A stretch of 64,000 nt of DNA from the IMG/VR virus record IMGVR_UViG_3300017700_000784, positions 1 through 64,000 of that record; one strand, 5' to 3'. This document shows positions 671-35,281 of the stretch, in pieces. The notes beneath the pieces are model-generated. The model was not told the origin of the DNA, did not search any database, and saw only the letters and a list, made by a program, of their open reading frames with translations. The position numbers and the translations under genes are program-made. Numbering within the stretch: position 1 is the stretch's first letter; the number at the start of each line of letters is the position of its first letter. This stretch comes from a virus (lineage: Duplodnaviria > Heunggongvirae > Uroviricota > Caudoviricetes).

Positions 671-1954
671 TTAAAAAGCCGCTATAATACTTTTAACTTT
701 TGAGCGCTGAGAGTTACCAATACTATCCTCAAACAATGGCATAACTACTGCTTGCATAGCATTAGTAAGATCAAATCCATCTACAACTAATCCAGCTGTC
801 TGAAGAGTGTGTCTTACAGAGATACTACTTGAAAGCTCTTGCTCTCTGTATTGCTCTCTTACTTTGTTGGCTACTTTTACAATAGCTATGGCATCTTTCT
901 CTTCAATACCTGTTCTTAGTACAAGGACTTTAATTTCATCTTTCTCTTTTGGATAAGATACTTCAACAGGGAAGAATCTATCTAGTAAAGCTCTATCAAT
1001 AGCATTTGTACCAGAGTACTCACTACCAATATTACATGTAGCAATAAATACTGTGTCTGGGTGAACTTCTATTTTTTGATCTTCTTCACTATGTGCCACA
1101 TCCACTGGTAAATATCTTCTGTTGTCAAGACAAGGGAAAAGAATATTATTAGCAGCCAAAGGCGCTCTGTTAAGCTCATCAAGCAAAACAATTCCTGCAG
1201 ACTGCACATATTTTACAAATGGTGCATGTTTAAACTCTGAAATACCCTCTTTATTCAAAGTATGTACTCCTAGTAAAGCAGACTGAGCATCTTGCACAGT
1301 ACCCATATCCTGGATAAACATCTCTCTTCCTAAAGCTTTGGCAATGTGTTTTACAATCTCAGTTTTACCTGTTCCTGTATCACCCATAATCATGATATTT
1401 TCACCTCTAAGGATATTTCTAACCATAAGATACCATAACTCAGGATCAATGTGAAAGCCAATATCTTCTCTGTTTGGAACAGGATATTTACTTGCGATGG
1501 CACGCTTCATGTTTACACTAGTTCCTGCAGCAGGTGCTCCTGGTTCTGGCATAGCAAATTTAGCATCCCAGTCAATAGTATAACCATAGGCTTTAAATTT
1601 CTCAGCCATTTCTTTAGCTTGGTCAAGAGTGAACTCTTCAGTTCTGTCAATCATGTAATCAATTAAGTAATCTATAAGAGGGTTAGCCTCAGGGCACTTC
1701 ATCTCATAAGTAGTATTCTCATGATATAAAGCAGCTACATTCTCTTTACGAATGTGCAGGTGGTCAGCTTCTGGGAAGTCATATCCATCTGTAATAAACA
1801 CTGTTCCCATAGGAAATTTTACAATGTCATTAATAGGAGCTGTAATTTTGATGTCAGATGCAGCTATAGGTAATAGCTTTTCAAATTTTGGTTGACCTGG
1901 TAAGGTTTCTACCTGTAAACTGGTTCCGTCAAGGAAGGCTCTAAATAAAATCAT
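671..1954 (-). CDS. AAA+ ATPase, MoxR/CobS-like (AAA_5)
   Basis: Walker A 'IMIMGDTGTGKTEIV'. Walker B/sensor 'VLLDELNRAPLAANNILFPCLDNRRY'. Arg-finger region 'IDRALLDRF'. The start was moved to the internal ATG (MILFRAF...) at 1954 to avoid overlapping the next gene; the track ORF runs 671..2038. Confidence 0.7.
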   Translation of the reverse strand: MILFRAFLDGTSLQVETLPGQPKFEKLLPIAASDIKITAPINDIVKFPMGTVFITDGYDFPEADHLHIRKENVAALYHENTTYEMKCPEANPLIDYLIDYMIDRTEEFTLDQAKEMAEKFKAYGYTIDWDAKFAMPEPGAPAAGTSVNMKRAIASKYPVPNREDIGFHIDPELWYLMVRNILRGENIMIMGDTGTGKTEIVKHIAKALGREMFIQDMGTVQDAQSALLGVHTLNKEGISEFKHAPFVKYVQSAGIVLLDELNRAPLAANNILFPCLDNRRYLPVDVAHSEEDQKIEVHPDTVFIATCNIGSEYSGTNAIDRALLDRFFPVEVSYPKEKDEIKVLVLRTGIEEKDAIAIVKVANKVREQYREQELSSSISVRHTLQTAGLVVDGFDLTNAMQAVVMPLFEDSIGNSQRSKVKSIIAAF

Positions 1955-2000
1955 ACTTTTTTTGTTTTTTGTTTTTCTTATTATTATTGTTACTCTGTTT

Positions 2001-2522
2001 TTAACCTTTGAAGTCTTCGATACTAAAATCATCTTCATTATCTGGATCTCTTTCTTTTAAGAAGTTACTATCCAGATTTTCTTTACCTACGATTTCACTC
2101 ATTATATCACTCTGTAATTTTTCAAGAGCGGGAATGTCATCACTTTCGATAGCTTTGTCAAATTTTTCTTTTACAGCCTGAATTTTTTCTTTTATTCCAG
2201 GAGGTAATTTGTCTATAAGTTCATCTAACCTCTTTTTTGAATCTTCAATTTTTTCACGAGGTTTACTTAGATCATGTCCTTTCTCACTATGAAAAATCTT
2301 ATCTATAAGTTCTTTTTCATATTTTTCAAGTTTGAACTTTACAAGCTTTATCATACCAAGTATTTCAGTAGGAGTACCATGTATTAAAGTAACAGTACCT
2401 TCAGGAGAACCATTTTGATCTAAACTTACACCCAATAAAGCATGTGATGTATAAACAGAAAGATCTTTATTCTGAAACTTTCTAATCTCATCAAGAAAAT
2501 TTATTTTTTCTTCTTTAGCCAT
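2001..2522 (-). CDS. hypothetical protein (acidic C-terminus)
   Basis: 173-aa ORF, no recognisable motif. Confidence 0.45.
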   Translation of the reverse strand: MAKEEKINFLDEIRKFQNKDLSVYTSHALLGVSLDQNGSPEGTVTLIHGTPTEILGMIKLVKFKLEKYEKELIDKIFHSEKGHDLSKPREKIEDSKKRLDELIDKLPPGIKEKIQAVKEKFDKAIESDDIPALEKLQSDIMSEIVGKENLDSNFLKERDPDNEDDFSIEDFKG

Positions 2523-4564: not shown

Positions 4565-4856
4565 AATAATGGTTGGTTTTAGTTAAATTGTTGAGCTTTA
4601 TAAAGCTCTCTTGATTGTTACGTAGTCTATGGTATATGAAATATTCATAACCATTACCTAAAAATATATTAGGAGGACTTGCGTGCTTTATTGCATCAGT
4701 GATAGTAAAAAAATAGTGTATACTACATGTTTGCTCTTTAGCATCTACTATAACTAATTTATAACTGGCATTCACACTATTAGGTGTAACTTCAATATCA
4801 ACAGGGTTGAATAGATAGTTAAACCTCCTTACTATTATTCCAATTATTTTTGTCAT
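4464..4856 (-). CDS. hypothetical protein
   Basis: 130-aa ORF. Confidence 0.45.
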   Translation of the reverse strand: MTKIIGIIVRRFNYLFNPVDIEVTPNSVNASYKLVIVDAKEQTCSIHYFFTITDAIKHASPPNIFLGNGYEYFIYHRLRNNQESFIKLNNLTKTNHYYGCNIKGSDTTGRRDPEALLPGTDEYQSKKQYS

Positions 4857-4869
4857 AAGATTAAGTTTT

Positions 4870-5613
4870 TTAAAAATCTATATTAAAAGCTCCTTTGAGT
4901 TGTTTGGCAATATCTGGAGCCTGATTTTTGATGATATTTTTATTAACAGTGCTTTTAACAGATCTTGAGATGTTAGCATAGCTTATAGTTTTACCATCAG
5001 ATGTGACTTTAACAGGTATAGAGTTAAAGATGTCAATATGTTCTAAAGAACTATCAGTAATAGCTTTCTTAAATTCTTTATAAGATTGTGGATTATCTAT
5101 AAACATCTCATTTGAATATGTAGTAGTGATTTCTCTTTTTATTTCACCACTTGCTATTTTAACAATTTTTTCCTCTCTAAAGTTTATCTGAATAATAACA
5201 GTAACATTAGGAATATAATCATATTGACTATCAAAAAGTCTAAGTCTTTGTGTATCTTTCACTCTGTCATAGCTGTTTCCGTTGTCAACATTAATTCTTT
5301 TACTAATAACTCTTTTTTTTGGATCAGCTGTATAACTACAACTGTAAGCATTAATATAAGTAGTATCTGCCTCAGCTTGTCCTTTATTAATAACTTTATT
5401 ATCCACTAAGTCCTGAAGAAATCTTTTTTTTAAAATTTCTGTCATACTATTACTAGTATGAATATTAGGTTGTGGAAGCTTTTCAAGTTTTTCTTGAATT
5501 TTATCATAGAGTTCATCTACAATAACATCAACTACATCTCCTTGTGTAAGTTGTGTTTTAATACCTGCTGCCTCAAGTGACTCTGAGGTAAGCGTTAACG
5601 CTGTTGTGCTCAT
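4870..5613 (-). CDS. hypothetical protein
   Basis: 247-aa ORF. Confidence 0.5.
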   Translation of the reverse strand: MSTTALTLTSESLEAAGIKTQLTQGDVVDVIVDELYDKIQEKLEKLPQPNIHTSNSMTEILKKRFLQDLVDNKVINKGQAEADTTYINAYSCSYTADPKKRVISKRINVDNGNSYDRVKDTQRLRLFDSQYDYIPNVTVIIQINFREEKIVKIASGEIKREITTTYSNEMFIDNPQSYKEFKKAITDSSLEHIDIFNSIPVKVTSDGKTISYANISRSVKSTVNKNIIKNQAPDIAKQLKGAFNIDF

Positions 5614-5634
5614 AATTAATATTTTTTAGATTTT

Positions 5635-5886
5635 TTATTTAAAATAATAGCTATTATAACCATTAGCACCATGTGCCCAGATATAATTACCTTGTAAAAC
5701 TTTTGCCATACAGCTCTTACAAATGTCAACTTTTTTCATATCAAGATAAGGAGAACAACTTCTTCCTTCAGTTTGATCTGTAGTAAAAATTACTTGAATA
5801 CTAACTTGATTAATAGTTGGCAGACTTTTGTTTGAACATTCACTTTTACACTCTTCTATGTCACATGTATATTTTTCTTCTTTCAT
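5635..5886 (-). CDS. small Cys-rich (zinc-ribbon-like) protein
   Basis: CDIEECKSEC ... CKSCMAKV cysteine pairs. Confidence 0.4.
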   Translation of the reverse strand: MKEEKYTCDIEECKSECSNKSLPTINQVSIQVIFTTDQTEGRSCSPYLDMKKVDICKSCMAKVLQGNYIWAHGANGYNSYYFK

Positions 5887-8450: not shown

Positions 8451-8486
8451 TTAAAGATTAATAATAACCCGGCTTTTACACCGGGT
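8451..8486 (-). terminator. putative intrinsic terminator after the PRTase gene
   Basis: Hairpin ACCCGG-cttttaca-CCGGGT (8467-8486), followed on the minus strand by a U-rich tract. Confidence 0.4.
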
Positions 8487-8495
8487 ATGAATTAG

Positions 8496-9284
8496 CTATT
8501 TAGAAGAATGTATTAAATTTTCTAATATAGCAAGATTATTTTTATACTTATCACTCTTGTTGTAGCCATTTAAGGCTGCAGAAGAATAAAGAGTTTCTTG
8601 AAAAACTTCACTCTGATAAGAGATAAAGCTCACAAACTCCTCAATATCTGCCTTTAAGATATATTTAAGCACCCGGATGTTGAGTATAAACTCTTCATTA
8701 CGGATGATATGATTGATATCCTTGAGGTTTTTTATGGAGTTATAATTTAAATCATGCTCTATAGCAGGTTTATCACCTGTATATTCAGCGATGTAAAGAA
8801 ATATTACCGGATTAGAGATAGCTTCTCTTACAAGTATCTCTTTTATTCTTTCTTCATGTGCACCTGTAATTTTGATATCATCAACAAACACAAGTATCTC
8901 TCCATCTCTTATACAAGATTTGTCTAAATACATGGTATCAGATGATATAGCTGTTGCTCTTTCTTCTTTACTCATAAGCCCATAATCTTCATCATAGGAA
9001 TATTCTCTGAATATCTTGGATTGTTTAACAGTTATATTTTTTTGTATAAGCTGTCTGGCACATCCAGATAATACATAATCTTTTAAGGCATTACTTGCAG
9101 CAGGTACATTATTGTAAGGCGCTGCATAGAATACCAAAGTACTATTCTCTGGGAAATCACAGACTTTAGCTACTTCTTCACCAAAATGGCGAGCACAGTT
9201 TTTGGAACCATGTTTAAAAGAGCTATAATCTTTATAGAAATCCGGAGTGAACGTATCACTTTTAATTAAACTTATTGTCTTCAT
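8496..9284 (-). CDS. phosphoribosyltransferase-like protein (Ter-associated PRTase)
   Basis: PRTase motif 'EILVFVDDIKITGAHEE' (hydrophobic-DD-x-x-TG). The gene ends in TAG. Confidence 0.55.
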   Translation of the reverse strand: MKTISLIKSDTFTPDFYKDYSSFKHGSKNCARHFGEEVAKVCDFPENSTLVFYAAPYNNVPAASNALKDYVLSGCARQLIQKNITVKQSKIFREYSYDEDYGLMSKEERATAISSDTMYLDKSCIRDGEILVFVDDIKITGAHEERIKEILVREAISNPVIFLYIAEYTGDKPAIEHDLNYNSIKNLKDINHIIRNEEFILNIRVLKYILKADIEEFVSFISYQSEVFQETLYSSAALNGYNKSDKYKNNLAILENLIHSSK

Positions 9285-9304
9285 AAGATTTTAGTTTTAA
9301 TCAG

Positions 9305-9943
9305 CTACTGGAGTATGAACTCTACAGCATCACTGATAGTTTTGTCATTTGTGTTTATAAGAAAAGACTTGATACCAAGCTTTCTTGGGCCGTCAACATC
9401 TGTTAAGATATTATCTCCTACATGTACAGAAGAAGTAGAATACATTCTAACATCAGGTTTAGCATAACCTACTTGATCACTGAAACAGTGAAAAGAAGCA
9501 TACTTTATGTCTGCATTAAAAAGTATTTTTTTTAAAGTTTCTCCTGTAATAAACATAGTATTTGAAGAAATCTTTATAGTTCTTCCAGCTTGTACTAAAT
9601 CTCTTAGTGCAGGAAGGGTTTCTTCAGAATATACAAGAGGAGGAATTTGAATAGCTAACTCTTGATATTGTTTATGAAATAAAGCTGCATGTAGCTTATT
9701 AAAATTATCATAAGTAATACCAAAGTTACTGAATAACATTCTTAGTATTTGTTCAGTAGTAGGTTGCCATCCAGTTTGTTCTATAACAGAGTTTAATGTA
9801 TTTTTTACAGAGTCAAAAGCATGATCTATGTAGGAGTCCCCTAAGTCTTTCTTAAAGAACTCTCTAACATAGTCATGTCTCATTTCTCTGAAATCTGGAT
9901 TACTCTTAATAAGGGTATTCCATAAGTCAAAGCTTACTAGCAT
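9305..9943 (-). CDS. HAD-superfamily hydrolase/phosphatase
   Basis: Motif I 'SFDLWNTLI' (DxDxT-like) and motif IV 'HVGDNILTDVDG'. The gene ends in TAG. Confidence 0.6.
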   Translation of the reverse strand: MLVSFDLWNTLIKSNPDFREMRHDYVREFFKKDLGDSYIDHAFDSVKNTLNSVIEQTGWQPTTEQILRMLFSNFGITYDNFNKLHAALFHKQYQELAIQIPPLVYSEETLPALRDLVQAGRTIKISSNTMFITGETLKKILFNADIKYASFHCFSDQVGYAKPDVRMYSTSSVHVGDNILTDVDGPRKLGIKSFLINTNDKTISDAVEFILQ

Positions 9944-9944
9944 G

Positions 9945-10523
9945 TTATATAACAGCTACAGCTTCAGGCACAATAGATGCTACAGTTCTACCATTACAAG
10001 GAGTACCTAAAGCATTCATTTTCCATCCACCATTGTGTCTGTAAAGTTTAGCCATGATTAATCCTGTGTTAGTAGTTCCTCTCTCATTGAGTTTATAGAT
10101 ACAAATTTCTTTGTTTTCTACACTATCAACAAGTCTAGCAAAGCAGTTTTTAACCTTATTAAAAGTTTGACCTTGATAAGAATTAACAACAAACACTAAG
10201 CTATCTACATTTGTAGGCACTGTAGTAAGATTTACATGAATTACTTCATCATCTCCATCACCAGCACCTGTAAGGTTGTCACCACTATGTCTGATGCTTC
10301 CATCACTAGAATGTAATTTTGAAAAACTAACAGTATCCACTACAGTTTTATTTACATCAAACATGATAACAGAAGCATCTAAATCGATACTTCCACCACC
10401 CATACCAAGAAATCCTCCTGATGAAGCATCCCAACCTAAACCCATAAAAACAGCAGTTAAAGCTCCACCATCAGCTTTCTTTAACTCTATTTTTTGTCCT
10501 TTTGTTAAGTTAATACTACTCAT
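9945..10523 (-). CDS. TerD-family stress protein (TerD/TerE/TerZ-like paralogue)
   Basis: 'INLTKGQKIELKK', 'MGLGWDA', 'DLDASVIMFD', 'HSGDNLTGAGDGDDEVIHVNL', 'LVFVVNSY' and 'KLYRHNGGWK' match the TerD-domain consensus. Confidence 0.9.
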   Translation of the reverse strand: MSSINLTKGQKIELKKADGGALTAVFMGLGWDASSGGFLGMGGGSIDLDASVIMFDVNKTVVDTVSFSKLHSSDGSIRHSGDNLTGAGDGDDEVIHVNLTTVPTNVDSLVFVVNSYQGQTFNKVKNCFARLVDSVENKEICIYKLNERGTTNTGLIMAKLYRHNGGWKMNALGTPCNGRTVASIVPEAVAVI

Positions 10524-10664
10524 TATAACTTACTTTTTACATACGCTACAATCTTAGCGCCCCATCCAAGGGTTGTTTCGGCACACATGCCTCCTAAAAA
10601 TACTAATGCAAATCCTATCATCTTTTCTATTTTTGAAAGGGTTAATAATCATTTAAAAAAGTAA

Positions 10665-10706
10665 TCCAAAAGGGGTAGTTAACTTGACCATCAACTAGCC
10701 CCTTAA
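10665..10706 (-). terminator. putative terminator between the two terD genes
   Basis: Imperfect hairpin AAGGGGTAGTT...AACTAgCCCCTT, with a U-tract downstream on the minus strand. Confidence 0.4.
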
Positions 10707-10738
10707 GAATTACCAGGTAACACAAAGAAAAATGTTTT

Positions 10739-11320
10739 TTAGTACTCAGCTACAAATTCAGCTAAGCCACCAGCTTTACCAGTACCAACTGCTTCAAACT
10801 TCCATTCACCATCTTTTTTGTATAATTTTCCGAAAAGTAAAGCAGTTTCCACGCTATAATCTTCATTCAAATCATACTTCATAAGCTCAGTGTTGGTAGC
10901 AGGATCAAATACTCTGATGTAAGCACCGCTTACTTGGCCAAAGTTTTGATTTCTTGCTGCAGCTTCATCAATAGTAACTACAAAGACAATAGCTTCAGCT
11001 TCAGCTTCAATTTTAGAAAAATCTACAACTAAACTTTCATCATCTCCATCTCCTTCTCCAGTTCTGTTGTCTCCTGTGTGCACTACTGCATCATTAGGAG
11101 ATTTCAAATTGTTGTAAAAAACGAAGTGAGCATCTGATAATCTCTTGTTAGCAGCATTAAGAATAACTGCAGATACATCTACATCAAACTGTGGTCCTAC
11201 ATTTGCATTAGGATTCCATCCTAAGCCTACCTGGTATTTAGAAACTCCAGGATTTGTTTTTGTTAGGTCAACTTTTTGACCTTTTGACAAGTTAATTGTC
11301 ACTACGGGTGTTGTACTCAT
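10739..11320 (-). CDS. terD: tellurium-resistance protein TerD
   Basis: Near-collinear with enterobacterial TerD: 'FVFYNNLKSPNDAVVHTGDNRTGEGDGDDESLVVDF', 'IVFVVTIDEAAARNQNFGQVSGAYIRV' and 'LLFGKLYKKDGEWKFEAVGTGKAGGLAEF'. Confidence 0.95.
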   Translation of the reverse strand: MSTTPVVTINLSKGQKVDLTKTNPGVSKYQVGLGWNPNANVGPQFDVDVSAVILNAANKRLSDAHFVFYNNLKSPNDAVVHTGDNRTGEGDGDDESLVVDFSKIEAEAEAIVFVVTIDEAAARNQNFGQVSGAYIRVFDPATNTELMKYDLNEDYSVETALLFGKLYKKDGEWKFEAVGTGKAGGLAEFVAEY

Positions 11321-11349
11321 GGTTATATAAAAATTAAATTTGTTTTTGT

Positions 11350-11570
11350 TTAACTACCTCCACAGCTACTTCCACAAGAGCTACCACAGCTTGAACTACT
11401 ACTACAGCTACTTGAAGATGAACTACTACAAGAGCTATGTGAAGAACTACAACTACTATGGCTACTACATGAAGAACTATGATCATTACTAGAACTGTGA
11501 TGTGAATCACTGGCCGGAGTAGAACCACATGAACTTGCAGAAAAACAGGAAGAAGAACTTGAATTATCTT
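11350..11570 (-). repeat. low-complexity (AGC/TGC-type) repeat encoding the Ser/Cys tail
   Basis: Reiterated 'agctactac / agaactac' units, which produce a homopolymer-like shadow ORF on the other frame (11334..11600). Confidence 0.6.
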
Positions 11571-12054
11571 TTTGAGAGACAGGTTCACTTGCAGATACAC
11601 TATCCATCATAAGTATAGGTATCCAGAACATCCAGTCATCACCAGAATTACTTCTGGAACTTGTGTATCCTGAAGACTTTATACTATGATGATACTGACC
11701 ATACATTCTTTTAGTAGAATTCCATGAAGCTTCATGCTTTTTAGGATTCTCTGTAGTGTTCGGGTCATGATGTATCACTCTTCCAAAAATATCCATACAG
11801 TCATCATAATATTTCCTTGTATCAAGGATGTGCTGATGCCAATAGTCATCTAACTCTTGACTCCAAGGGACTACACAAGCATAAGGATTACTAAATATCA
11901 TAAATAAGAACTGTCTATACTCTTTACAGATTTTGTCAGCTTCTTCTTTAGTCCAACCTTTTTTTTCTATTAAATTTTTAGTAACAGAAGAAAGGTCTAA
12001 CATATCTATTTTTTTAAAAGCTTTTTCAGCTTTAGATGTAAGCCACTCCCACAT
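11350..12054 (-). CDS. hypothetical protein with His-rich N-domain and an extreme Ser/Cys-rich C-terminal tail
   Basis: N-terminal part contains 'WHQHILD' and 'GRVIHHDPN'. C-terminal about 80 aa reads 'SSSSSCFSASSCGSTPASDSHHSSS...SSCSSSHSSCSSSSSSSCSSSSSCGSSCGSSCGGS'. Confidence 0.6.
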   Translation of the reverse strand: MWEWLTSKAEKAFKKIDMLDLSSVTKNLIEKKGWTKEEADKICKEYRQFLFMIFSNPYACVVPWSQELDDYWHQHILDTRKYYDDCMDIFGRVIHHDPNTTENPKKHEASWNSTKRMYGQYHHSIKSSGYTSSRSNSGDDWMFWIPILMMDSVSASEPVSQKDNSSSSSCFSASSCGSTPASDSHHSSSNDHSSSCSSHSSCSSSHSSCSSSSSSSCSSSSSCGSSCGSSCGGS

Positions 12055-12055
12055 A

Positions 12056-12772
12056 TTATTTCTTTTTAAAGATTATTGGAAACAAAAATACAGACATGGT
12101 TACTACTGAGAATACTAAATCTGTGTAGTGATTATTAAGCCATCCGTGTAGTTTATACTGTGGAAAGAAATCCATAATACCAGCTAAAAGCATTTTTAGT
12201 CCTAATAGAAGTATTACTATAAAAGCAGAACCTTCAAGAGTTGGATATTTCTGTAGTATCTGTGAAAAATATTGAGCCACAAATCTCATACCTAATATAC
12301 CTAAAAATACAGCAGCTACAACTACCCATATATTACTGGATAATGATACTACAGCAACTAAGTTATCAAGACTAAAAACTATATCCAGAAATTCTACCAT
12401 TACTACAGTAGTCCAGAATTTATTAAGATGAAAAAATCTACATATCTTCTGTAAAAATCCAGGCTCTTGTCCCTCTTCTACAGAATCAACTTCAGCAGTA
12501 GAGTGAGTATACCATAAATAACATAGGTAAGCACCTCCTAATATCTTAAACACTCCTCCTATAGAAGGATTATATAAAATATAAGAAACCAGTAATAGAG
12601 ATAACCCTCTAAAGAGATAAGCACCAAGTATACCATACTTAAGAGCTTTTTCTCTTTCTTTTTTGTCAGATAAGTTTCTGTTTACTATGACAGCAAGTAC
12701 TGAAGCATTATCAATGCTTAACACTATTTCTATCATAAGTATATTCAGAAACACTAGTAAGAAAGCTATCAT
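12056..12772 (-). CDS. terC: TerC-family integral membrane protein
   Basis: Polytopic membrane protein with the two hallmark TerC motifs 'VLSIDNASVLAVIV' and 'VFSLDNLVAVVSL'. Confidence 0.85.
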   Translation of the reverse strand: MIAFLLVFLNILMIEIVLSIDNASVLAVIVNRNLSDKKEREKALKYGILGAYLFRGLSLLLVSYILYNPSIGGVFKILGGAYLCYLWYTHSTAEVDSVEEGQEPGFLQKICRFFHLNKFWTTVVMVEFLDIVFSLDNLVAVVSLSSNIWVVVAAVFLGILGMRFVAQYFSQILQKYPTLEGSAFIVILLLGLKMLLAGIMDFFPQYKLHGWLNNHYTDLVFSVVTMSVFLFPIIFKKK

Positions 12773-13386
12773 TATTTTTTCAAGTTGTATTTACAACCAT
12801 TCACAATGATATACTCAATGGTTCTTGGATCAACTTGTCTGGTTCTGTTATCATAACTAGCAGAATTATCCTTAGTTACCTCCATATCAATGAAAGACAT
12901 TCTTTTGTGTTCATTGTAAGAACCATAGTGTCTTCCTTTCATTTCTCTAAAAGCTCCCGGAGTAGTTCTAGTGATAGGATTTTCAATAAGATTCTGAACC
13001 ATGATAGGTAATTCTGACATCTTAGCATTTACAAATGCTTGTTTAGCAGCCTCAACTTCAGACTTGTAATCTCTTACAAGTTTTTCTTTGTCTTTTTCAT
13101 AAAAACCAACAGCCATAGCAATTCTTGGATTACTGTCAAAAATCTCAATAAGTTCTGTTCTTGTTTTCACTTCTTCTCTGTCATAGTAATCTGCACTACT
13201 AAGGATTTTTTCAACATACTTGTTGCCAAGAGTAATGTTATCATTACCATGTTCATCAGAAACAACAATACTACCTGGTAATATTTTCTTTACAATGAAG
13301 AAAGATGATTCAGATAATATTGATCCTGCTTTTAATCCAGCCAATTTACTTGTTGCTTGTTTAGCAACTGTTGCACTTTTTCCCAT
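12772..13386 (-). CDS. hypothetical protein (inside the Ter-like cluster)
   Basis: 204-aa ORF with a 1-nt overlap with terC. Confidence 0.5.
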   Translation of the reverse strand: MGKSATVAKQATSKLAGLKAGSILSESSFFIVKKILPGSIVVSDEHGNDNITLGNKYVEKILSSADYYDREEVKTRTELIEIFDSNPRIAMAVGFYEKDKEKLVRDYKSEVEAAKQAFVNAKMSELPIMVQNLIENPITRTTPGAFREMKGRHYGSYNEHKRMSFIDMEVTKDNSASYDNRTRQVDPRTIEYIIVNGCKYNLKK

Positions 13387-13450
13387 GCTTTTTAGTTTTT
13401 AAAGTTTATGAATTATTTTTTTCTTTTTTAGCAATTTTTCCCAAGTCTTA

Positions 13451-14278
13451 TTACTTGATGTCTTTATAGAAACCTTTACTTACATCTTCTCCTGCAACAG
13501 CGCTGGTAAAATAAGCAGTTCTACTTCTTAAAGTCTCTCCAAGAACTTTTTTAAGGCCTTCTCCAGTACCATCATAAGATGCAGTATTACTAGCATGCAC
13601 TTTTGTTTTTCTTATGATAGAAGCAACATCTTGTTTGGTTCCAATAAAAGTAATAGTGAAATTTTTACTATTATACTCTTCTATTAGTTTACCTACAGAC
13701 TCAGAATTATACTTACGGGAAGCATTTTCTTCTCCATCTGTATAGATGTTTACTAAAACTTTACATGAAGTATCTTTAAGATAAGATTTCATTGCTGTAA
13801 GAGTCTGTCCTATAGCATCATATAATGCTGTGGTACCTCCGGCATGGCAAGCAATTTTTGATACACCTTTAACAGGTTTAGACAAATACTGTAAATCTAC
13901 ATTATGGTCAAATTGACAATAAGTGTGTGTATATACTACTTTGTCTTTTGAGTTTTGAAGCTCTTCTACTCCTTTATTAAGGAATTCTTTGGCATTTTGA
14001 ATTTTAGGTCCTGACATAGAACCAGAGCGATCTAAAATGTCTACAACATGAATAGTTGTGATTTTGTTTTTACTAGAAGACTTATCAGTCTTAGTACTCT
14101 TAGGTGGGGTTGTAGTTGTAGTAGCAGTTGCTTTTTTACCAGTTTTTAAAAAACTAATGTACTCAGCAGCAGTACTAAAACCCTCTTTTTGTGCTTTTTT
14201 CTCTCTTGAAACTTTGTTTCTTTGGATAAAAGACTTTAACAGATCAGAATTCGATTTTTTTGTGGCAGTTGCACTCAT
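13451..14278 (-). CDS. vWA-domain protein (TerY-like)
   Basis: MIDAS motif 'VVDILDRSGSMSG' ... 'GGTTALYDAI' ... 'YTDGEEN'. The N-terminal about 70 aa is Lys/Thr-rich and looks disordered. Confidence 0.8.
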   Translation of the reverse strand: MSATATKKSNSDLLKSFIQRNKVSREKKAQKEGFSTAAEYISFLKTGKKATATTTTTPPKSTKTDKSSSKNKITTIHVVDILDRSGSMSGPKIQNAKEFLNKGVEELQNSKDKVVYTHTYCQFDHNVDLQYLSKPVKGVSKIACHAGGTTALYDAIGQTLTAMKSYLKDTSCKVLVNIYTDGEENASRKYNSESVGKLIEEYNSKNFTITFIGTKQDVASIIRKTKVHASNTASYDGTGEGLKKVLGETLRSRTAYFTSAVAGEDVSKGFYKDIK

Positions 14279-14303
14279 ATATAAAAATTTAGAATTTTTG
14301 ATA

Positions 14304-14337
14304 CTAAAAAAAAAGGCTCACAATTAAGTAAGCCTTT
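14304..14337 (-). terminator. rho-independent terminator
   Basis: Stem AAAGGCT/AGCCTTT with a 12-nt loop, followed on the minus strand by U9. Confidence 0.55.
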
Positions 14338-14366
14338 TCAAATTTAATAGGTAATCTTTTTTTTAA

Positions 14367-14789
14367 TTAAGCCAAAAAATCAGCTTTAATAGCCTTGAAT
14401 TCTTCTACTTCAGCTTCGATATCAGAGATGGCTTCTTTCTCTGACTCAACTTGTGCTTCAAGTCTTTTAACTTCTGTTTTAGCAGTGTTTCTATCTGTAA
14501 GATAGTCTCTAAAATAAGGTCTTACAGCAAATCTTGTATCTTCAAAAGCTTTTTGAGCTTTAGTTAAAGCTTGCTCAGTACGCTTAAGGGCTAATTTTGC
14601 CTGAGGGATATCTTGTACCTCTCTGGTAGAGATTTGGGTATCTATCTCAATAAGAGAATCCTCAACAAAAGTTGTCACTGCATCAGTGATTTTTTCATCT
14701 TCTGTCTGATTAGCAGCTGCTAATGCATTACTTAAGAATTTACTAGTTTTTCCTGTTACTGCTTTTGTAACTTTTGATTTTGTGCTCAT
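14367..14789 (-). CDS. coiled-coil protein
   Basis: 140-aa charged, helical, heptad-like sequence. Confidence 0.45.
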   Translation of the reverse strand: MSTKSKVTKAVTGKTSKFLSNALAAANQTEDEKITDAVTTFVEDSLIEIDTQISTREVQDIPQAKLALKRTEQALTKAQKAFEDTRFAVRPYFRDYLTDRNTAKTEVKRLEAQVESEKEAISDIEAEVEEFKAIKADFLA

Positions 14790-14794
14790 GTTTA

Positions 14795-16183
14795 TTAAGG
14801 TTTTAAATTTGTTTTTGTTTTCTTTATTGTAAGATTTTTTGATACCTTATTTTTAGGTATCTGTTTTTTTGTTTTATTAATGATTACTTCTAATTTTCGA
14901 GAGTTTTTCAAAGATACTCCAGAAGTAGTATTAACTTCTATTACATCAGAAAGTTTTAACTCAGGAGTTAAAAATGATGAATAAGACAACTGTTTTTTAC
15001 AAAAAGCCCAAGCATATAACTCTTCATAAGTATAAGGACATATAGGTTTTATAAATACTCCTTCTGAAGTAACATATTTTTGATTAAAAGTTTTTAAAGT
15101 ACCTTTTCCTTGAATATCACTCCAAAAAAGTCCCCCTTCTACAGTATCTGACCATGTAAACATTGTTCCTAAACTAGTAGACATAGTTTTTCCAGGAGGA
15201 TTAGGAATACCATAAGTTACTTTTTTCTCATACTCATATAATCTTATAAGTATTACATGTCTTACCATCTTAGGAAAGTCTTCAAATTTACAATTATGTT
15301 TAACTGAAGTTATTATTGACTGTGTTGGTTGTATCATTAACTGTTCTACAGTTTTACTATTTACTTTAATCATCTCCTTGTTAAAATCAGAATTTGAATG
15401 ATTTAAGCTAAATCTTTTATTTGTAGTGACATCTACACCTTTAGCACTAATAGCTTTATCAAATTCGTATTTATGAAAGTTTGGTTCTATAATTAATATA
15501 TTTCTTATTCTAAAATATATAGGAAAATCAGAATCTTGTAATCCTACAAAATATGAGCTATTACCAAGTTTAGGACTTATACACCAATCACCTGCTTTAA
15601 ATTTTTCTTCAATGTTTATAACATCATTTTTTTCAAATATATGAACAGCTGTTGCCCATCTATTTCCTTGTTTTACTAATCTTGATGATTGAGTATTACC
15701 ATATTTAAGAGTATCACTAGTACCTCTTTCAAAAAATTCTCCACTAGGAAGCACAGCATATATATTGGAGCCTAATATTTTAAAATCTTCAGTTACTACT
15801 TTACAGTGTTCAGTATTAGGAGTAATAACATGTACAGGTTTAAAATAGGTACCAATAGGATATCTTTCTTTTGCTTCTGCAATTAATTCTTCTTGAGTAC
15901 TAAGTTTTTTCTCAGGTTCAGTCATAACCTCTGCCCATTTTCCTTCCTTATACATTGTCCAAAAACTAGGACCTGAAATACCTTGAATACATCCATCATG
16001 TCCTCTTAGAAATATTCTTATGTCAGTAAGATGAGAACCTTCTATAATAAGATCTTTATCTGAAAGTTCTTTAGCAATAACTTTTCTAGCTGTATATCCT
16101 ACTGGAATAAATTCAGTACCTGGTGTATATTTAGCAATGGTTGTACCTATTAAATCTTTTTTTAAGGTTTCTAATGCATTCAT
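14795..16183 (-). CDS. hypothetical protein
   Basis: 462-aa ORF. Confidence 0.5.
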   Translation of the reverse strand: MNALETLKKDLIGTTIAKYTPGTEFIPVGYTARKVIAKELSDKDLIIEGSHLTDIRIFLRGHDGCIQGISGPSFWTMYKEGKWAEVMTEPEKKLSTQEELIAEAKERYPIGTYFKPVHVITPNTEHCKVVTEDFKILGSNIYAVLPSGEFFERGTSDTLKYGNTQSSRLVKQGNRWATAVHIFEKNDVINIEEKFKAGDWCISPKLGNSSYFVGLQDSDFPIYFRIRNILIIEPNFHKYEFDKAISAKGVDVTTNKRFSLNHSNSDFNKEMIKVNSKTVEQLMIQPTQSIITSVKHNCKFEDFPKMVRHVILIRLYEYEKKVTYGIPNPPGKTMSTSLGTMFTWSDTVEGGLFWSDIQGKGTLKTFNQKYVTSEGVFIKPICPYTYEELYAWAFCKKQLSYSSFLTPELKLSDVIEVNTTSGVSLKNSRKLEVIINKTKKQIPKNKVSKNLTIKKTKTNLKP

Positions 16184-17649: not shown

Positions 17650-19278
17650 TTATTCTTCTTCACCTTTGGCAACATTAAACATACCTTCAGTGGTATATCC
17701 AGTAATATTACCGCAATTATCAATCATAATTTGTTTTCCACCACTGTTTACACAGAGGTTTTTAAGCTCATCACTAAATTCCATTAATGATATAGCATTT
17801 ACTTTGTAAGGAAAAGCATCATATCCTACACTATCCTGACCATCATTTATGATGAGTATCTCAGGTTTCACTTTAGATAAGTCTGTTTTCAAATTACAAA
17901 GGCTGCCTCTTTTAATCTCATCAGAAATATGAGTTACAATTCTTCCCATATCAGTTAAAGAACCATTAGGGGAATTACTGAAATTCTTCCAGAAAGATTT
18001 TACATCAGCAGCACACTTAAGATGAGTAAATTTAAGATGTTCAGGATTACTTACAAAGTAGCTGAAATAAATCTCAGCATTACCTCTGATAACATGTCTG
18101 AACCTATCCATAAGAATAGAGTTAACCCACACTTGTTTAGTAGGGTCATGCATACTTCCTGAATAGTCACAGATAATAATAATAGTCTGTTTCTTTTCAG
18201 TCTTAGAAATAGGGACATTTACCACAAGTTCTTTAGTAAGAAGCTTAAGGCCATAATAAGGAAGAAGTCTTTGATAGATATCTATTTTAGTTATCTGATC
18301 ATAGCTACGCATGATTTGCTTTTTAACATGAATAGAGTTTTCCACTTCTTTTTCACCAGTTTCAAGTTCAACCTTAAAATGACTACCCATGTCTCCCATT
18401 ATGGAAATATTCTGCATGATAGTATCTAAAGATTTTCTACTGTAAGCACAATGGTCAAATTGTCCCATAAGAGACTCATCACCATAATCCTCACGCTTAA
18501 AACTAATGTTTCTGTGTATATCCTTCTTACCAACTCTTTTGGCCATCTGCTCACGAGCTTCAGCATCTCTAACCCTATGATAAACAGCAAGAGCTTGTTC
18601 AAGAGGAGAAAAACCTGGAATATAGGTATTATATATGTCATCAAAGATTTTTTTCTTTTTTTCATATGTAGAACCACCTTCATTGTTTTTCATTCTCTTA
18701 GACATATAATCCTTGTCATCTATCATTTTAAGATAACATACTCTACATATCTCTTGAACAAGTTCAACAGATTCGTTAGTATATACATTAATCTTACCTT
18801 TAATTTCAAATTCTGTAGGAGTAATATAATTATCAGGATTTTTTACATACAGCTCACCAACAGTACCGCTGTCATACCAAGTACTCCAGTTATAACTAGA
18901 CCATCTGGTAGCACTCCATGCAAACTCTTTCTTTTCAGGAACATAATATTCATCATCATCTTCATTTCTGTAATTTTCACTATAAATACTATGACCTGCT
19001 GTTAAAGTGCTTCTTCTAGTGTCCATGACACTGATTCCTCTTTTCTTTTGAATTCTTTCAAGACGCTTTCTTTCCTTCTCTTCTCTTCTTTGCTGTCTTC
19101 TATCAAACTTACTTACATATTTGTCAGTGTTTGGAGTAGAAGAACTATCAGCAGCCTTGGTAACTGTGTAGGAACCATACTTAGTGTATACTATTGTGGT
19201 TACACGTCCAGGAGTAGGTTCTACAGGTTTTTTTAATGCTAATGGAGACCACAACTTTCCGCCTTTTTCCCATGGCAT
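17650..19278 (-). CDS. vWA-domain protein, CobT-like (C-terminal vWA)
   Basis: MIDAS motif 'QTIIIICDYSGSMHD' ... 'SLTDMG' ... 'ILIINDGQDSV'. Lies immediately downstream of an AAA+ ATPase. Confidence 0.7.
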   Translation of the reverse strand: MPWEKGGKLWSPLALKKPVEPTPGRVTTIVYTKYGSYTVTKAADSSSTPNTDKYVSKFDRRQQRREEKERKRLERIQKKRGISVMDTRRSTLTAGHSIYSENYRNEDDDEYYVPEKKEFAWSATRWSSYNWSTWYDSGTVGELYVKNPDNYITPTEFEIKGKINVYTNESVELVQEICRVCYLKMIDDKDYMSKRMKNNEGGSTYEKKKKIFDDIYNTYIPGFSPLEQALAVYHRVRDAEAREQMAKRVGKKDIHRNISFKREDYGDESLMGQFDHCAYSRKSLDTIMQNISIMGDMGSHFKVELETGEKEVENSIHVKKQIMRSYDQITKIDIYQRLLPYYGLKLLTKELVVNVPISKTEKKQTIIIICDYSGSMHDPTKQVWVNSILMDRFRHVIRGNAEIYFSYFVSNPEHLKFTHLKCAADVKSFWKNFSNSPNGSLTDMGRIVTHISDEIKRGSLCNLKTDLSKVKPEILIINDGQDSVGYDAFPYKVNAISLMEFSDELKNLCVNSGGKQIMIDNCGNITGYTTEGMFNVAKGEEE

Positions 19279-19281
19279 AGT

Positions 19282-20487
19282 TTAGAAAGGATTATCATCA
19301 TCAGTAGTAGATACCTCACACTGACCAGTAGATTCTCTCTTAACCCACTGACCTTCAGCATCTTTAACATATCCAGCTTTCTTTTTACTCATGAATTTTC
19401 CATCAGGTCCTTTTATAATAGGATTAAGCTCGGCTTCATACTGAAGTTTTATAGCTTGATGATTACGGATTTCACCATCTATCTTACGCACCATATCAGT
19501 ATGTAAAGATATCAAGCTGTCATCAACACTCATCTTACTAAGAGTTTTAAACTTAGCATTAAGTTCACTGTATTTCTCAATGAAAAGCTCCTTTTCTTCT
19601 CTTGTAGAAGGATTAGCATTAGCAAGATATTCAAGATACTCTGCAAGTTCAGCACCACTTTGTTTAAACTTAATAGTTGCCTCAAACTTTTTAAGAGCTT
19701 CAGCTATAAGCTGTGGCTTTTTATTCAAGTCAGCTATAAGCTTAAGTGAGTCTGGTCCACAAGTTTCATACACAGCATAAGTATCAATAGCAATTCTAGG
19801 AGAAATGTTGATATTAGCTTTAGCATATTCTTGTAGCATGAAAGGAATAATTGGATCTACTTGGCCTACACCAAATCTTTGCTCCAAAAGTTTATTATAA
19901 CTCTCTTCTGTGTAATTATCCCAAATCACAAGAAGTTCAAGTGGAAATCTTTCCATAACTGCTTTAAGTGAGTCATTTTTAGCAAACTCTTCACGAGTTT
20001 TGTTTGTACATGCTATAATAAACTTGGTTTTGATTGGAAATACTTGTGAGCCATTTCTAAACATTCTTGAAGAAAGTACATCTTTAAGATTTTCAAGTAT
20101 GAAATCTGGTGAATCCATCATCTCTTCCAAGATAACATATTCATGGTTAAACATACTGTTTTCTATAAGATACTCTATTTTACCATCTCCTAATGATACA
20201 ATATCAATACCTCCAAACAGTCTATCTGTAGTCATACCTGAACCCATAGTAAGAACATATGGATTAATACCTTTTTCATACAAATACTCTAAGGCAAATT
20301 CTGATTTTCCATGACCACCTGGACCAAAGAGAACCACATTTCTGCCTGTTTTCATACCTGCATCAAGTGCTAACAGCACTTTATCCATAAAGACAAAATT
20401 ACTTAGGATACTCTGTTTAGGTATATTCTTTACTTTTCGAGAAGCTTTTGGTTTTTTAGCTTCTACTTCTTCTTTTATCGCTGTCAT
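19282..20487 (-). CDS. AAA+ ATPase, CobS/MoxR-like
   Basis: Walker A 'VVLFGPGGHGKSEFA' and Walker B-like 'EYVILEEMMD'. Adjacent to the vWA partner. Confidence 0.7.
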   Translation of the reverse strand: MTAIKEEVEAKKPKASRKVKNIPKQSILSNFVFMDKVLLALDAGMKTGRNVVLFGPGGHGKSEFALEYLYEKGINPYVLTMGSGMTTDRLFGGIDIVSLGDGKIEYLIENSMFNHEYVILEEMMDSPDFILENLKDVLSSRMFRNGSQVFPIKTKFIIACTNKTREEFAKNDSLKAVMERFPLELLVIWDNYTEESYNKLLEQRFGVGQVDPIIPFMLQEYAKANINISPRIAIDTYAVYETCGPDSLKLIADLNKKPQLIAEALKKFEATIKFKQSGAELAEYLEYLANANPSTREEKELFIEKYSELNAKFKTLSKMSVDDSLISLHTDMVRKIDGEIRNHQAIKLQYEAELNPIIKGPDGKFMSKKKAGYVKDAEGQWVKRESTGQCEVSTTDDDNPF

Positions 20488-22913: not shown

Positions 22914-22986
22914 TCCTATCTGTGGGACTTGAACCCACGACCATTGGTTTTAGGGACCACAGCTCTACCAACTGAGCTAAGACAGG
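22914..22986 (-). tRNA. tRNA with predicted anticodon CUA (amber-reading, suppressor-like); identity undetermined
   Basis: Manual fold of the minus strand CCTGTCT-TA-GCTC-AGTTGGTA-GAGC-T-GTGGT-CCCTAAA-ACCAA-TGGTC-GTGGG-TTCAAGT-CCCAC-AGATAGG-A. Acceptor stem 7 bp (one G.U). D-stem 4 bp with G18G19. T-stem 5 bp with T-loop TTCAAGT. Variable loop 5 nt. Anticodon loop CCCTAAA gives anticodon 34-36 = CTA, with an unusual C33 and a 27:43 G.A mismatch. No encoded CCA. Confidence 0.65.
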
Positions 22987-24803: not shown

Positions 24804-25757
24804 TTATTTAGGATTAAGTATTACTGAAGTATCTCTTCCTAACTGAGTACTAGGTACTCTTGGTACATCAGGATTTACATCTACCCATTTAAGATACTCT
24901 ATGTATAAAGGAGTAAGCTCTTGTTTTCTAAGCTTCATAGCTTTAGCACTAGCACTTGCTGTAATAACTACTCTAGCAGAATCTCCTCTGGCAACAGCAA
25001 TCTTTTGCTCTTTTTCTGCATCAGCTGCTTTAGCTTTTGCCATCCATTTCTGTGCATCATATTCTGCAGCAGCTTTATCTGCTATAGATTTAGCAATAGA
25101 ACTTGGAGGTGGCATATTAGTTCTTAGTTGTGATACTTTAAACCATTTACCTACTCTTTTATTAGCTTCAAGCTGTATAGCTATTTCAAATTCAGTTTTT
25201 TTATTAAAAATGTCTTCTACCTTCCATGAATTAGTAACGTCATTTACAGCGCCTAATATAGCTATTTCAAGCCATCCTTGTTCTATGGTTTCAAGACCAT
25301 TACCTGATCTGAATGCAGTTCTTAGATTAGTAAACATTTCTGCTGTAGTACCTGTTTTTACAGAGTAGTTAAATGAAGGAAATATCTTTAAAGCAAATCC
25401 TCCTTTAGCAACACTAGGTTGTTCTCCATATCTAATACTTCTTTGATCAAGTGGTATCTGATGTATTTCCTCTGTCCAAGTGTTGTATACTTTCCAACCA
25501 GAAATTTCTTTTATAGAGCTTGCACCACGGCTATCACCTATAAGATTTACAAGTAATCCTTGATAACCAGCTTCAATTTTCTTTAAAGCATAAGGTTGTA
25601 TAAATATTACTACAAGACATACTATACCAATAGCTATAGCTTTATAGTTTAAAACAGTATCAGCTCCAGTTCTTCTTACAATAATGTGAAGCTTGTTTTG
25701 TAAAATCAGTCCTCCAAATATGAGGATAAAAATAACGAGTAAAATAGATGTTAACAT
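24804..25757 (-). CDS. SPFH/band-7 (stomatin/HflC-like) membrane protein
   Basis: N-terminal transmembrane helix, 'QGLLVNLIGDSRG' and a C-terminal Ala/Glu-rich coiled coil 'AAEYDAQKWMAKAKAADAEKEQKIAVARGDSARV'. Confidence 0.7.
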   Translation of the reverse strand: MLTSILLVIFILIFGGLILQNKLHIIVRRTGADTVLNYKAIAIGIVCLVVIFIQPYALKKIEAGYQGLLVNLIGDSRGASSIKEISGWKVYNTWTEEIHQIPLDQRSIRYGEQPSVAKGGFALKIFPSFNYSVKTGTTAEMFTNLRTAFRSGNGLETIEQGWLEIAILGAVNDVTNSWKVEDIFNKKTEFEIAIQLEANKRVGKWFKVSQLRTNMPPPSSIAKSIADKAAAEYDAQKWMAKAKAADAEKEQKIAVARGDSARVVITASASAKAMKLRKQELTPLYIEYLKWVDVNPDVPRVPSTQLGRDTSVILNPK

Positions 25758-34246: not shown

Positions 34247-34536
34247 AATTACAAGGAAGAAAAATCCTAATTAACAGGCCAGCAATGGAAGAGTCTAAAT
34301 CATCTCTTATGATAGGTGAGGAAACTAAGAAAGCCATGGAAGCTGAAGAGATTAAGAAAGCCACTGAGAAGTGGAGTAAGCTTGAAGTATATGCCACAGC
34401 AGAAGAAGTACAAAAGTGTAAGCCAGGGGATAGAGTTTATCTTTCTTCTTACCTTCTCCAGAACCCAGAGCTTGTCCCCATTGGGGAGGACTTTAAGATT
34501 ATGGTAAATGAATCAGACATAGATATAGTTTGGTAA
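34243..34536 (+). CDS. GroES-like co-chaperonin (cpn10/gp31-like)
   Basis: 97 aa. 'GRKILINRPAMEE' resembles GroES 'HDRVIVKRKEVE'. The C-terminus 'EDFKIMVNESDIDIVW' resembles GroES 'EEVLIMSESDILAIVEA'. Confidence 0.55.
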   Translation: MKLQGRKILINRPAMEESKSSLMIGEETKKAMEAEEIKKATEKWSKLEVYATAEEVQKCKPGDRVYLSSYLLQNPELVPIGEDFKIMVNESDIDIVW

Positions 34537-35201
34537 ACCAAAAACCCTCAGAAATGAAAGAAGCCAACAGACCAAGAAAGAGTGATATTAAATACAAAGT
34601 CTCCTTAAATGAAGAGCAAAAATTAGCTAAGCAGTTAATTATAGATAATCAGATAGTTGTTATAACAGGTAGAGCTGGTTGTGGAAAGTCCTTAGTTGCT
34701 GTTATTGCAGCACTTGACTTTCTAAATAAGAAAGAGTGTAACAAAATCCTGGTGACAAGATCTGCTATTGAAGTAGGTAAGTCACTAGGGTTCTTACCAG
34801 GAAGTTTAGATGATAAGTTTAATCCTTATATAGAAGCTTTGGTTGAAAACATGTATAAATGTATGGACCAGGAGAAGATAGATGAATTTGTAAAGACTCG
34901 TAGAGTAGATGCTTTACCTATCCAGTTTATCAGAGGTAAGACTATAGAGGATGTACTTATTGTTGAAGAAGCCCAAAACCTTACTAAGCAGGAGATGTTG
35001 GCTATTCTTACAAGACTTGGAAAGACAGGAAAGATTATAATTAATGGTGATAATGAGCAACAGGATACTAATGAAGGTTTAACAGGTTTGTCTTATGTTA
35101 TTAATCTTGCAAAAACTTTAGATGGTATAGAGTGGATTAAGCTTAAAGAAAATCATAGAAGTGATTTGGTTGGTAAGATATTAGATCTTGAGTATAACTA
35201 A
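34530..35201 (+). CDS. phoH: PhoH-like ATPase
   Basis: 'VVITGRAGCGKSLVAV' (Walker A), 'GFLPGSLDDKFNPYIEAL', 'IQFIRGKTIEDVLIVEEAQNLT' and 'LTRLGKTGKIIINGDNEQQD'. Confidence 0.9.
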   Translation: MVNQKPSEMKEANRPRKSDIKYKVSLNEEQKLAKQLIIDNQIVVITGRAGCGKSLVAVIAALDFLNKKECNKILVTRSAIEVGKSLGFLPGSLDDKFNPYIEALVENMYKCMDQEKIDEFVKTRRVDALPIQFIRGKTIEDVLIVEEAQNLTKQEMLAILTRLGKTGKIIINGDNEQQDTNEGLTGLSYVINLAKTLDGIEWIKLKENHRSDLVGKILDLEYN

Positions 35202-35210
35202 ATGGTACAA

Positions 35211-35281
35211 CGCTGGGTGGTGTAAAGGTAACACGTAGGGTTCATGTCCCTAAGCTTTGGGTTCGACTCCCAACCCCGCTA
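35211..35281 (+). tRNA. tRNA-Met (CAU), initiator-like
   Basis: CGCTGGG-TG-GTGT-AAAGGTA-ACAC-G-TAGGG-TTCATGT-CCCTA-AGCT-TTGGG-TTCGACT-CCCAA-CCCCGCT-A. Anticodon loop gives CAT. The anticodon stem has three consecutive G-C pairs, and there is a 1:72 mismatch (C1/T72). The acceptor ends CGC.GGG/CCCCGC, as in bacterial tRNA-fMet. Confidence 0.8.

Follow-up and report, generated by a model that had tools for sequence, protein, structure and literature searches.

A compact six-gene Ter island in a probable crAss-like phage of Bacteroidota

The Ter system, which is widespread, was first found decades ago as a determinant of resistance to tellurite, phages and colicins. In the published model, as summarised by Iyer, Anantharaman, Krishnan, Burroughs and Aravind (2021; PMC7824862), a derivative of a nucleoside or nucleotide is produced by phosphoribosyltransferases (PRTases) together with HAD phosphoesterases. 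TerD (and TerB) are the ligand-binding proteins of this model, TerC has its role in the membrane, and structures beneath the membrane are built from TelA and vWA proteins. The work of Iyer et al. described phage Ter systems in Acinetobacter phage ME3 and Caulobacter jumbo phages, noted "certain other related smaller tailed phages" and proposed superinfection exclusion. In the genome record of Escherichia phage phi92, genes are annotated for a hydrolase, a PRTase, a TerC-like protein, a TelA-like protein and stress proteins. High transcription of TerD genes has been found in Bacteroides jumbo phages (PMC12880540), and among deposited phage records PRTase_3 occurs in 157 and TerD in 263. Here we describe a Ter island in a 64,000-nt stretch of viral DNA, referred to below as the window (positions 1 to 64,000 of IMG/VR record IMGVR_UViG_3300017700_000784). 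Phage Ter systems with PRTase and HAD genes, and the idea of superinfection exclusion, are already known (PMC7824862; phi92 record), and the novelty that an earlier note on this DNA claimed for the locus was overstated.

The window encodes a large terminase, a portal protein and a major head protein and belongs to a tailed phage. Its terminase is about 25% identical to the terminases of crAss-like, Bacteroides and Flavobacterium phages, and the phage is probably a distant crAss-like one with a host in Bacteroidota. The island consists of six genes on the minus strand, read from 12772 to 8496 and spanning 4.3 kb:

12056..12772, minus strand: TerC-family membrane protein, YkoY/MeeY subfamily, 238 aa (Pfam PF03741, E 9e-42)
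11350..12054, minus strand: GRDP-like / UCP032817-like protein, 234 aa (family PF27765/PF07173)
10739..11320, minus strand: TerD paralogue 1 (TerD1), 193 aa (Pfam TerD PF02342, E 6e-75; PDB 2kxt, E 2e-63)
9945..10523, minus strand: TerD paralogue 2 (TerD2), 192 aa, motif GDNLTGAGDGDDE (Pfam TerD, E 1e-51; PDB 3ibz, E 4e-36)
9305..9943, minus strand: HAD-fold hydrolase of a distinct subfamily, 212 aa (PHROG, NCBIfam, 2om6 and Pedobacter orthology)
8496..9284, minus strand: PRTase_3, ComF-like phosphoribosyltransferase, 262 aa (Pfam PF15610, E 7e-50)

That these genes form a Ter module is hardly in doubt. There are two TerD (PF02342) paralogues, of which TerD1 carries a Ca2+-site motif of the form GDN(R)TGxGDGDDE, a TerC-family membrane protein (PF03741) is encoded within the same gene block, and PRTase_3 (PF15610) adjoins a HAD-fold hydrolase. 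The earlier note had read eight minus-strand open reading frames (ORFs) between 8496 and 14278 as a Ter-type neighbourhood, and all eight were found at exactly those coordinates. Pfam profile searches confirmed its calls of TerD, a TerD paralogue, TerC and a PRTase. Five of the six components that it named (TerC, the two TerD proteins, HAD and PRTase) are real Ter genes, but the sixth, a vWA protein, is not, and the neighbourhood is smaller than had been claimed, with six genes rather than eight.

TerD1 covers positions 2-187 of the 187 in the Pfam TerD profile, and its residues 8-193 align to residues 2-187 of Klebsiella TerD (PDB 2kxt; E 2e-63) without a gap, which bears out its description as near-collinear with enterobacterial TerD. 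The stretch HTGDNRTGEGDGDDESL is identical in the two proteins, as is the Ca2+-site motif GDNRTGEGDGDDE, and the Klebsiella protein binds Ca2+. With the enterobacterial plasmid operon terZABCDEF (Klebsiella/Serratia) the island thus shares the TerD fold, the Ca2+-site motif and a TerC-family member, but it has no TerZ/A/B/E/F set and its TerC is of the YkoY rather than the plasmid type. Both of the LSxDN-type motifs expected of TerC are readable in the translation (LSIDNA and FSLDNL), and against the NCBIfam model of the YkoY subfamily (TIGR03716), to which Bacillus subtilis MeeY (YkoY) belongs, the protein scores 178 bits, above the curated cutoff of 138.5. TerC proteins of the MeeY/YkoY type in Bacillus export Mn and metalate secreted enzymes (PMC10550928). 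Unlike MeeY, the phage protein is encoded in a TerD/PRTase context rather than as a stand-alone gene and has no yybP-ykoY Mn riboswitch upstream or elsewhere in the window; such a riboswitch was ruled out with Rfam, which finds just two tRNAs in the window (22914-22986, minus strand, and 35211-35281, plus strand).

The enzymatic core of the island is the pair formed by the HAD and PRTase_3 genes, which lie 20 nt apart with HAD upstream. PRTase_3 has the phosphoribosyl pyrophosphate (PRPP)-loop motif VFVDDIKITG, and its similarity to PDB structures is limited to the PRPP loop of adenine phosphoribosyltransferase (APRT). The HAD protein falls below the Pfam gathering scores (20.2 bits against 22, and 19.6 against 26.4), yet the call made in the earlier note holds: it is backed by a PHROG "hydrolase" match (E 9e-24), by weak NCBIfam HAD-IA matches, by a full-length alignment to the HAD-fold structure 2om6 and by a Pedobacter orthologue that does pass Pfam HAD models, three of them. 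The nucleophile Asp and canonical motifs II-IV are present. Motif I, however, reads D-L-W-N-T (residues 6-10), so that Trp stands at D+2 in place of the general-acid Asp of the canonical D-x-D phosphatases. The same D-x-W-x-T motif occurs in 14 of 14 aligned full-length phage Ter-linked HADs (the window and, by our locus numbers, L001, L002, L005, L027-L029, L031, L035-L038, L040 and L041), and the closest solved structure, 2om6, an unverified "phosphoserine phosphatase", also has Trp at D+2.

Comparison of loci anchored on PRTase_3 showed how constant this pair is. Of 16 distinct phage loci, phi92 and a Rhizobium phage among them, 15 have HAD as the next gene upstream of PRTase_3, 11 have TerD, 11-12 have TerC and 10 have a vWA-TerF gene, and TelA occurs in phi92 only (1/16). 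The 80 bacterial loci matching the PRTase have the HAD-PRTase pair in 78 cases and TerD likewise in 78, usually in at least two copies, with TerC within 8 kb in 54 and vWA-TerF in none (0/80); their commonest order is HAD, PRTase, TerD, TerD, TerC (25/80). The D-x-W HAD and PRTase_3 are a conserved enzymatic core and are strictly coupled.

The closest relatives are islands of uncultured phages on IMG/VR, ENA and JGI contigs (L004/L005, L027, L028 and L029), with PRTases 71-75% identical to that of the window and HAD and PRTase adjacent in all of them. Unlike the window, most of them have a PF10138 vWA-TerF-like gene and a single TerD, and the gene order differs in each:

L004/L005: TerC, TerD, vWA-TerF, HAD, PRTase
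L027: HAD, PRTase, TerC, TerD, vWA-TerF
L028: TerD, TerD, HAD, PRTase, TerC
L029: vWA-TerF, TerD, HAD, PRTase, TerC

The comparison of gene order in related phages that the earlier note had called for therefore finds the same families kept together but their order variable. Identities are mosaic as well: the window TerC is 72% identical to that of L005 and 23% to that of L027, and TerD1 is 67% identical to the TerD of L027. Beyond these islands, 88 close PRTase homologues (50-91% identity) lie on metagenomic contigs, of which those inspected are phage-like, and identity to bacterial genomes does not exceed 43% (best matches 34-43%, overwhelmingly Bacteroidota). The G+C content of the island is like that of the rest of the phage. 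Together with the identities within the PRTase clade, this argues for long residence in phages. No deposited phage matched the 6-kb block in a megablast search, and relatives were reached through proteins alone. Two of the loci deserve mention in their own right. The best "bacterial" PRTase_3 match (43%) is on an 80-kb contig binned as Pyrinomonadaceae (L042, CAVZXI010000031.1) that has TerC, three TerD, HAD and PRTase genes and, given its size, may be a mis-binned phage or a prophage. The best TerD matches among deposited phage records (54%) are three tandem TerD genes that follow a TelA-like gene at 11892-14798 of a human-faecal "Bacteriophage sp." scaffold (L003, MT836648.1).

Among bacterial systems, the island resembles the Bacteroidota ter operon of Pedobacter sp. 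AW31-3R, from the probable host phylum of the phage, in having the same five families, two TerD genes, a coupled HAD-PRTase_3 pair and no vWA-TerF. The complete Pedobacter locus runs HAD, PRTase_3, TerD, TerD, TelA, a 320-aa ORF and TerC, so that by gene content the window is of the Bacteroidota type minus TelA and the 320-aa gene. It differs further in its permuted order, with TerC first, in the GRDP-like gene inserted between TerC and TerD, in its short YkoY-type TerC (238 aa, against 339 aa in Pedobacter) and in a PRTase identity of only 34-43%. With phi92 and the phage systems of Iyer et al. it shares PRTase, HAD, TerD and TerC genes in a lytic tailed phage, as well as the proposed function in superinfection exclusion or stress tolerance, but it comes from a crAss-like lineage with a probable Bacteroidota host, has no TelA or vWA-TerF, occupies a compact 4.3 kb and includes a putative GRDP-like accessory; compared with deposited phages, its TerD is less than 60% identical and its PRTase about 35% at most.

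The upstream limit of the island depends on two genes that precede TerC:

13451..14278, minus strand: backbone vWA/MIDAS protein, not Ter, 275 aa (VWA PF00092, E 4e-8, above the gathering score)
12772..13386, minus strand: conserved crAss-like backbone protein, not Ter, 204 aa, partner of the upstream vWA gene

The earlier note had assigned the first of these to the position of TerY and had proposed both the 204-aa ORF and the ORF at 11350-12054 as new Ter components. Such an eight-gene neighbourhood would agree with the arrangement of the block: its eight genes run in one direction with little space between them, the 204-aa ORF and TerC share 1 nt where the stop codon of the former meets the start codon of the latter, and the stretch from the vWA gene to TerD1 is free of terminator-like sites. 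A vWA gene is also found in many genuine Ter islands. The vWA domain itself is real, and its metal-ion-dependent adhesion site (MIDAS) is visible as the motif DRSGS. The wider occurrence of the two genes tells against their belonging to the island. Homologues of the 204-aa ORF number more than 200 at about 50% identity, on contigs of 85-135 kb. Of 16 related crAss-like loci, 14 have a vWA gene as the next gene upstream, and none of the 16 has TerC, TerD, HAD or PRTase within 8 kb. Replication-type genes neighbour the pair in L011 and L012, the two loci with gene calls. Over its full length the window vWA shows 35-44% identity to 11 of these backbone-locus vWAs, and it shares with the more divergent ones the N-terminal motif LLxSFxxxNKxxRxKxAQKxGFxTxxEYxxFL. 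It has no similarity to the Ter-linked vWA of the related island L005 (E = 24), and PF10138, the vWA-TerF-like model, matches neither it nor the backbone vWAs up to an E limit of 10, whereas the three Ter-linked phage vWAs tested all match (L005, 1e-56; L027, 1e-58; L029, 3e-8). It is neither of the TerF (PF10138) nor of the TerY type. In the TerY-P triad a vWA protein is flanked by a PP2C phosphatase and a Ser/Thr kinase; here the neighbours (the 204-aa ORF and a 140-aa ORF) have no kinase or phosphatase domain, and the vWA protein has no PADLOC match. Homologues of the 204-aa ORF are absent from all 16 PRTase-anchored phage loci and all 80 bacterial ones. We conclude that these two genes form a conserved pair in the backbone of the phage lineage and are not Ter components. 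Their pairing away from Ter genes, with the lack of a PF10138 match, places the start of the island at TerC, directly downstream of the pair in the non-structural arm of the genome. The eight-gene reading is already largely refuted, and we regard it as very improbable.

The other candidate fared better. The protein encoded between TerC and TerD1 has the DLDDxWHxHILDTxKY...DC...HHxP motif and the Ser/Cys/Gly-rich tail of a GRDP-like family; it has 228 homologues, nearly all annotated PF27765. The N-terminal domain is all-alpha, with invariant columns D69, W72, H73, Y82, C86 and H96, and low-complexity C-terminal tails rich in Ser, Cys and Gly, for example ...SSCGSSCGGGGCGGD, and falling within 11350-11650 in the window, are conserved across phage and bacterial members, suggesting that the Cys-rich tail may be metal-binding or otherwise functional. 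Three homologues of moderate similarity are found on phage-like contigs that have no Ter genes, from which we had considered the ORF an unrelated insertion; this was dropped, since both of its closest relatives (N-terminal domain about 56% identical) sit beside Ter genes. In one of them (L122) the GRDP-like gene is followed directly by a TerD 72% identical to TerD1, and in the other (L123) the order is TerD, GRDP-like, TerC, vWA-TerF, with only 38-42% identity to the window proteins. No homologue occurs in the 16 phage or the 80 bacterial PRTase-anchored loci, and a further 59 loci (57 metagenomic and 2 viral, many of them on short contigs) gave no other Ter adjacency. The Ter association is confined to one subclade of a family that is mostly not Ter-linked; in at least two diverged islands a member of this subclade lies between TerC and TerD, and it is plausible, judging from these relatives, that the protein is a lineage-specific accessory of the island. 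As a candidate for a new component the gene therefore stands, while the 204-aa ORF does not.

The description of the cluster as punctuated by terminators proved apt, with three terminator-like hairpins on the coding strand:

14310..14339, minus strand: terminator-like hairpin with a T-run, separating the vWA gene from the 140-aa gene upstream of it
10660..10714, minus strand: stable terminator-like hairpin followed by a U-run (dG -29.6 kcal/mol, z -5.5)
8467..8486, minus strand: terminator-like GC-rich hairpin with a T-rich tail, 10 nt past the PRTase stop, at the 3' end of the island

The second of these sits within the 215-nt gap that separates the two TerD genes and would putatively split the block into two transcription units.

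Several components common in other Ter systems were looked for in the window. TelA was absent by tblastn with the phi92 and Pedobacter TelA proteins as queries, and neither TelA, TerB nor ATP-grasp appeared in Pfam scans of 30 window ORFs (every leftward-arm ORF of 150 aa or more and three from the rightward arm). There is no vWA-TerF-like gene elsewhere in the window. PADLOC returned only a weak ShosT match to the PRTase core (5.7e-6) and none for the other proteins of the block, which is thus not a defence system as catalogued in PADLOC.

Genes of nicotinamide adenine dinucleotide (NAD) salvage, namely PnuC, an NadR-like nicotinamide mononucleotide (NMN) adenylyltransferase, NAMPT and NUDIX, were seen next to phage Ter islands, or no more than about 6 kb away from them, in four independent loci (L001, 13093-14770; L028, 4183-5729; L035, 14193-15602; L123, 6112-7023 and 10201-11697). 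They were searched for in the window and none was found. This adjacency may reflect no more than the usual clustering of auxiliary genes, or it may hint at a pyridine riboside as the product of PRTase_3 and HAD.

Taking these results together, the best overall explanation, and one that we consider likely, is that the locus is a phage Ter island, a trimmed relative of the Bacteroidota operon, and is deployed in infection. The functions proposed for it draw on established knowledge of the families, applied to what was observed here: identities, motifs, linkage and a boundary that leaves out the vWA gene and the 204-aa ORF. PRTase_3 would join PRPP to a base and yield a nucleoside 5'-monophosphate, which the HAD protein would process, probably by dephosphorylation, to a nucleoside-like metabolite. 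The TerD proteins would bind Ca2+ and serve as cytoplasmic sensors or adaptors, and TerC would transport a divalent metal of the Mn2+ type across the membrane. Expressed in infection, the module might condition the envelope and the metal state of the host so that superinfecting phages are excluded. For a nucleoside-like product we see the chances as evenly balanced; superinfection exclusion as the selective benefit is possible, but we hold it only tentatively.

Some observations weigh against this explanation. The HAD protein lacks the general-acid Asp at D+2, so that phosphatase activity is an assumption and is not assured. To our knowledge, neither PRTase_3 nor the D-x-W HAD subfamily has a known biochemical function. 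TelA and vWA-TerF, common Ter partners, are missing from the window, which represents 64 kb of a genome that is probably about 136 kb long. The HAD-PRTase_3 pair is found without TerC or TerD nearby in four phage loci (L001, L031, L040 and L041), and may therefore also work alone, though L001 nonetheless has an annotated YjbE-type membrane protein about 5 kb upstream.

This last observation leads to the main alternative, in which HAD-PRTase_3 and TerC/TerD are two separate auxiliary functions that merely lie side by side, the former serving salvage or modification of nucleotides or pyridine nucleotides (a riboside, NAD+ and nucleotide pools, or phage DNA precursors) and the latter Mn/Ca homeostasis. 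The pair in phi92 adjoins ribonucleotide reductase genes, the NAD-salvage genes described above adjoin Ter islands in L001, L028, L035 and L123, the hairpin at 10660..10714 divides TerD1 from TerD2, HAD and PRTase, and YkoY/MeeY-type TerC has a demonstrated Mn role of its own (PMC10550928), all of which would fit such a separation. In the Bacteroidota, however, the HAD-PRTase pair is found with TerD in 78 of 80 loci, usually in one co-directional block, and this linkage argues for one functional unit. The window, moreover, has no NAD-salvage gene, and auxiliary genes cluster in phage genomes anyway. We consider two separate functions unlikely.

A different use of the same gene set would be counter-defence, the phage copy mimicking or pre-empting a Ter alarm of the host, for example by degrading or flooding its signal, so that inhibition of the phage fails. 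Bacteroidota, the likely host phylum, hold the closest bacterial homologues, and these come with the same set of genes; phage inhibition, moreover, is an effect of plasmid ter operons (a point also covered in PMC7824862). The phage enzymes, on the other hand, keep the bacterial motifs and give no sign of a decoy or an inactivated copy. We know of no experimental evidence that Bacteroidota Ter operons restrict phages, and we find counter-defence distinctly improbable.

One further and more speculative scheme can be drawn for the locus. The D-x-W HAD and PRTase_3 might make a riboside-type signal, possibly a pyridine-related one because NAD-salvage genes repeatedly adjoin in four phage loci; TerD would sense this signal and gate TerC, and the GRDP-like protein with its Cys-rich tail would be a new subunit, recruited in this phage lineage to a place between TerC and TerD. 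We think this scheme improbable as it stands. If it were true, the five- or six-gene phage version would be a minimal natural Ter system, and the most practical one for establishing Ter biochemistry.

Other features of the window lie away from the island. An SPFH/Band_7 membrane-scaffold gene is found at 24804-25757 (minus strand), about 10.5 kb from it, and in L029 a Band_7 gene (4730-5662) lies directly upstream of the Ter island. Two MoxR-type AAA+ ATPase genes are present, in the regions 17650-20487 and 671-2038 (both minus strand). The first, bpMoxR (19282-20487), is followed by a gene for a 542-aa protein with a DYSGSM vWA-like motif and no Pfam match, a pair that is kept in L015 and L017; the second (671-2038) has AAA_5 and CbbQ_C domains. 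A PhoH-like gene (34530-35201, plus strand) opens the rightward, structural arm, and a strand switch and a change of sign in GC skew fall near 33-34.5 kb of the window.

These results overturn no current view, but they correct the boundary of the locus, and models of the Ter system should leave out the vWA gene and the 204-aa ORF. They add crAss-like phages of probable Bacteroidota hosts to the phages from which Ter modules are known. The compact phage version, with TerC, two TerD proteins, HAD and PRTase_3 in 4.3 kb, also offers a small natural construct for the reconstitution of a Ter system.

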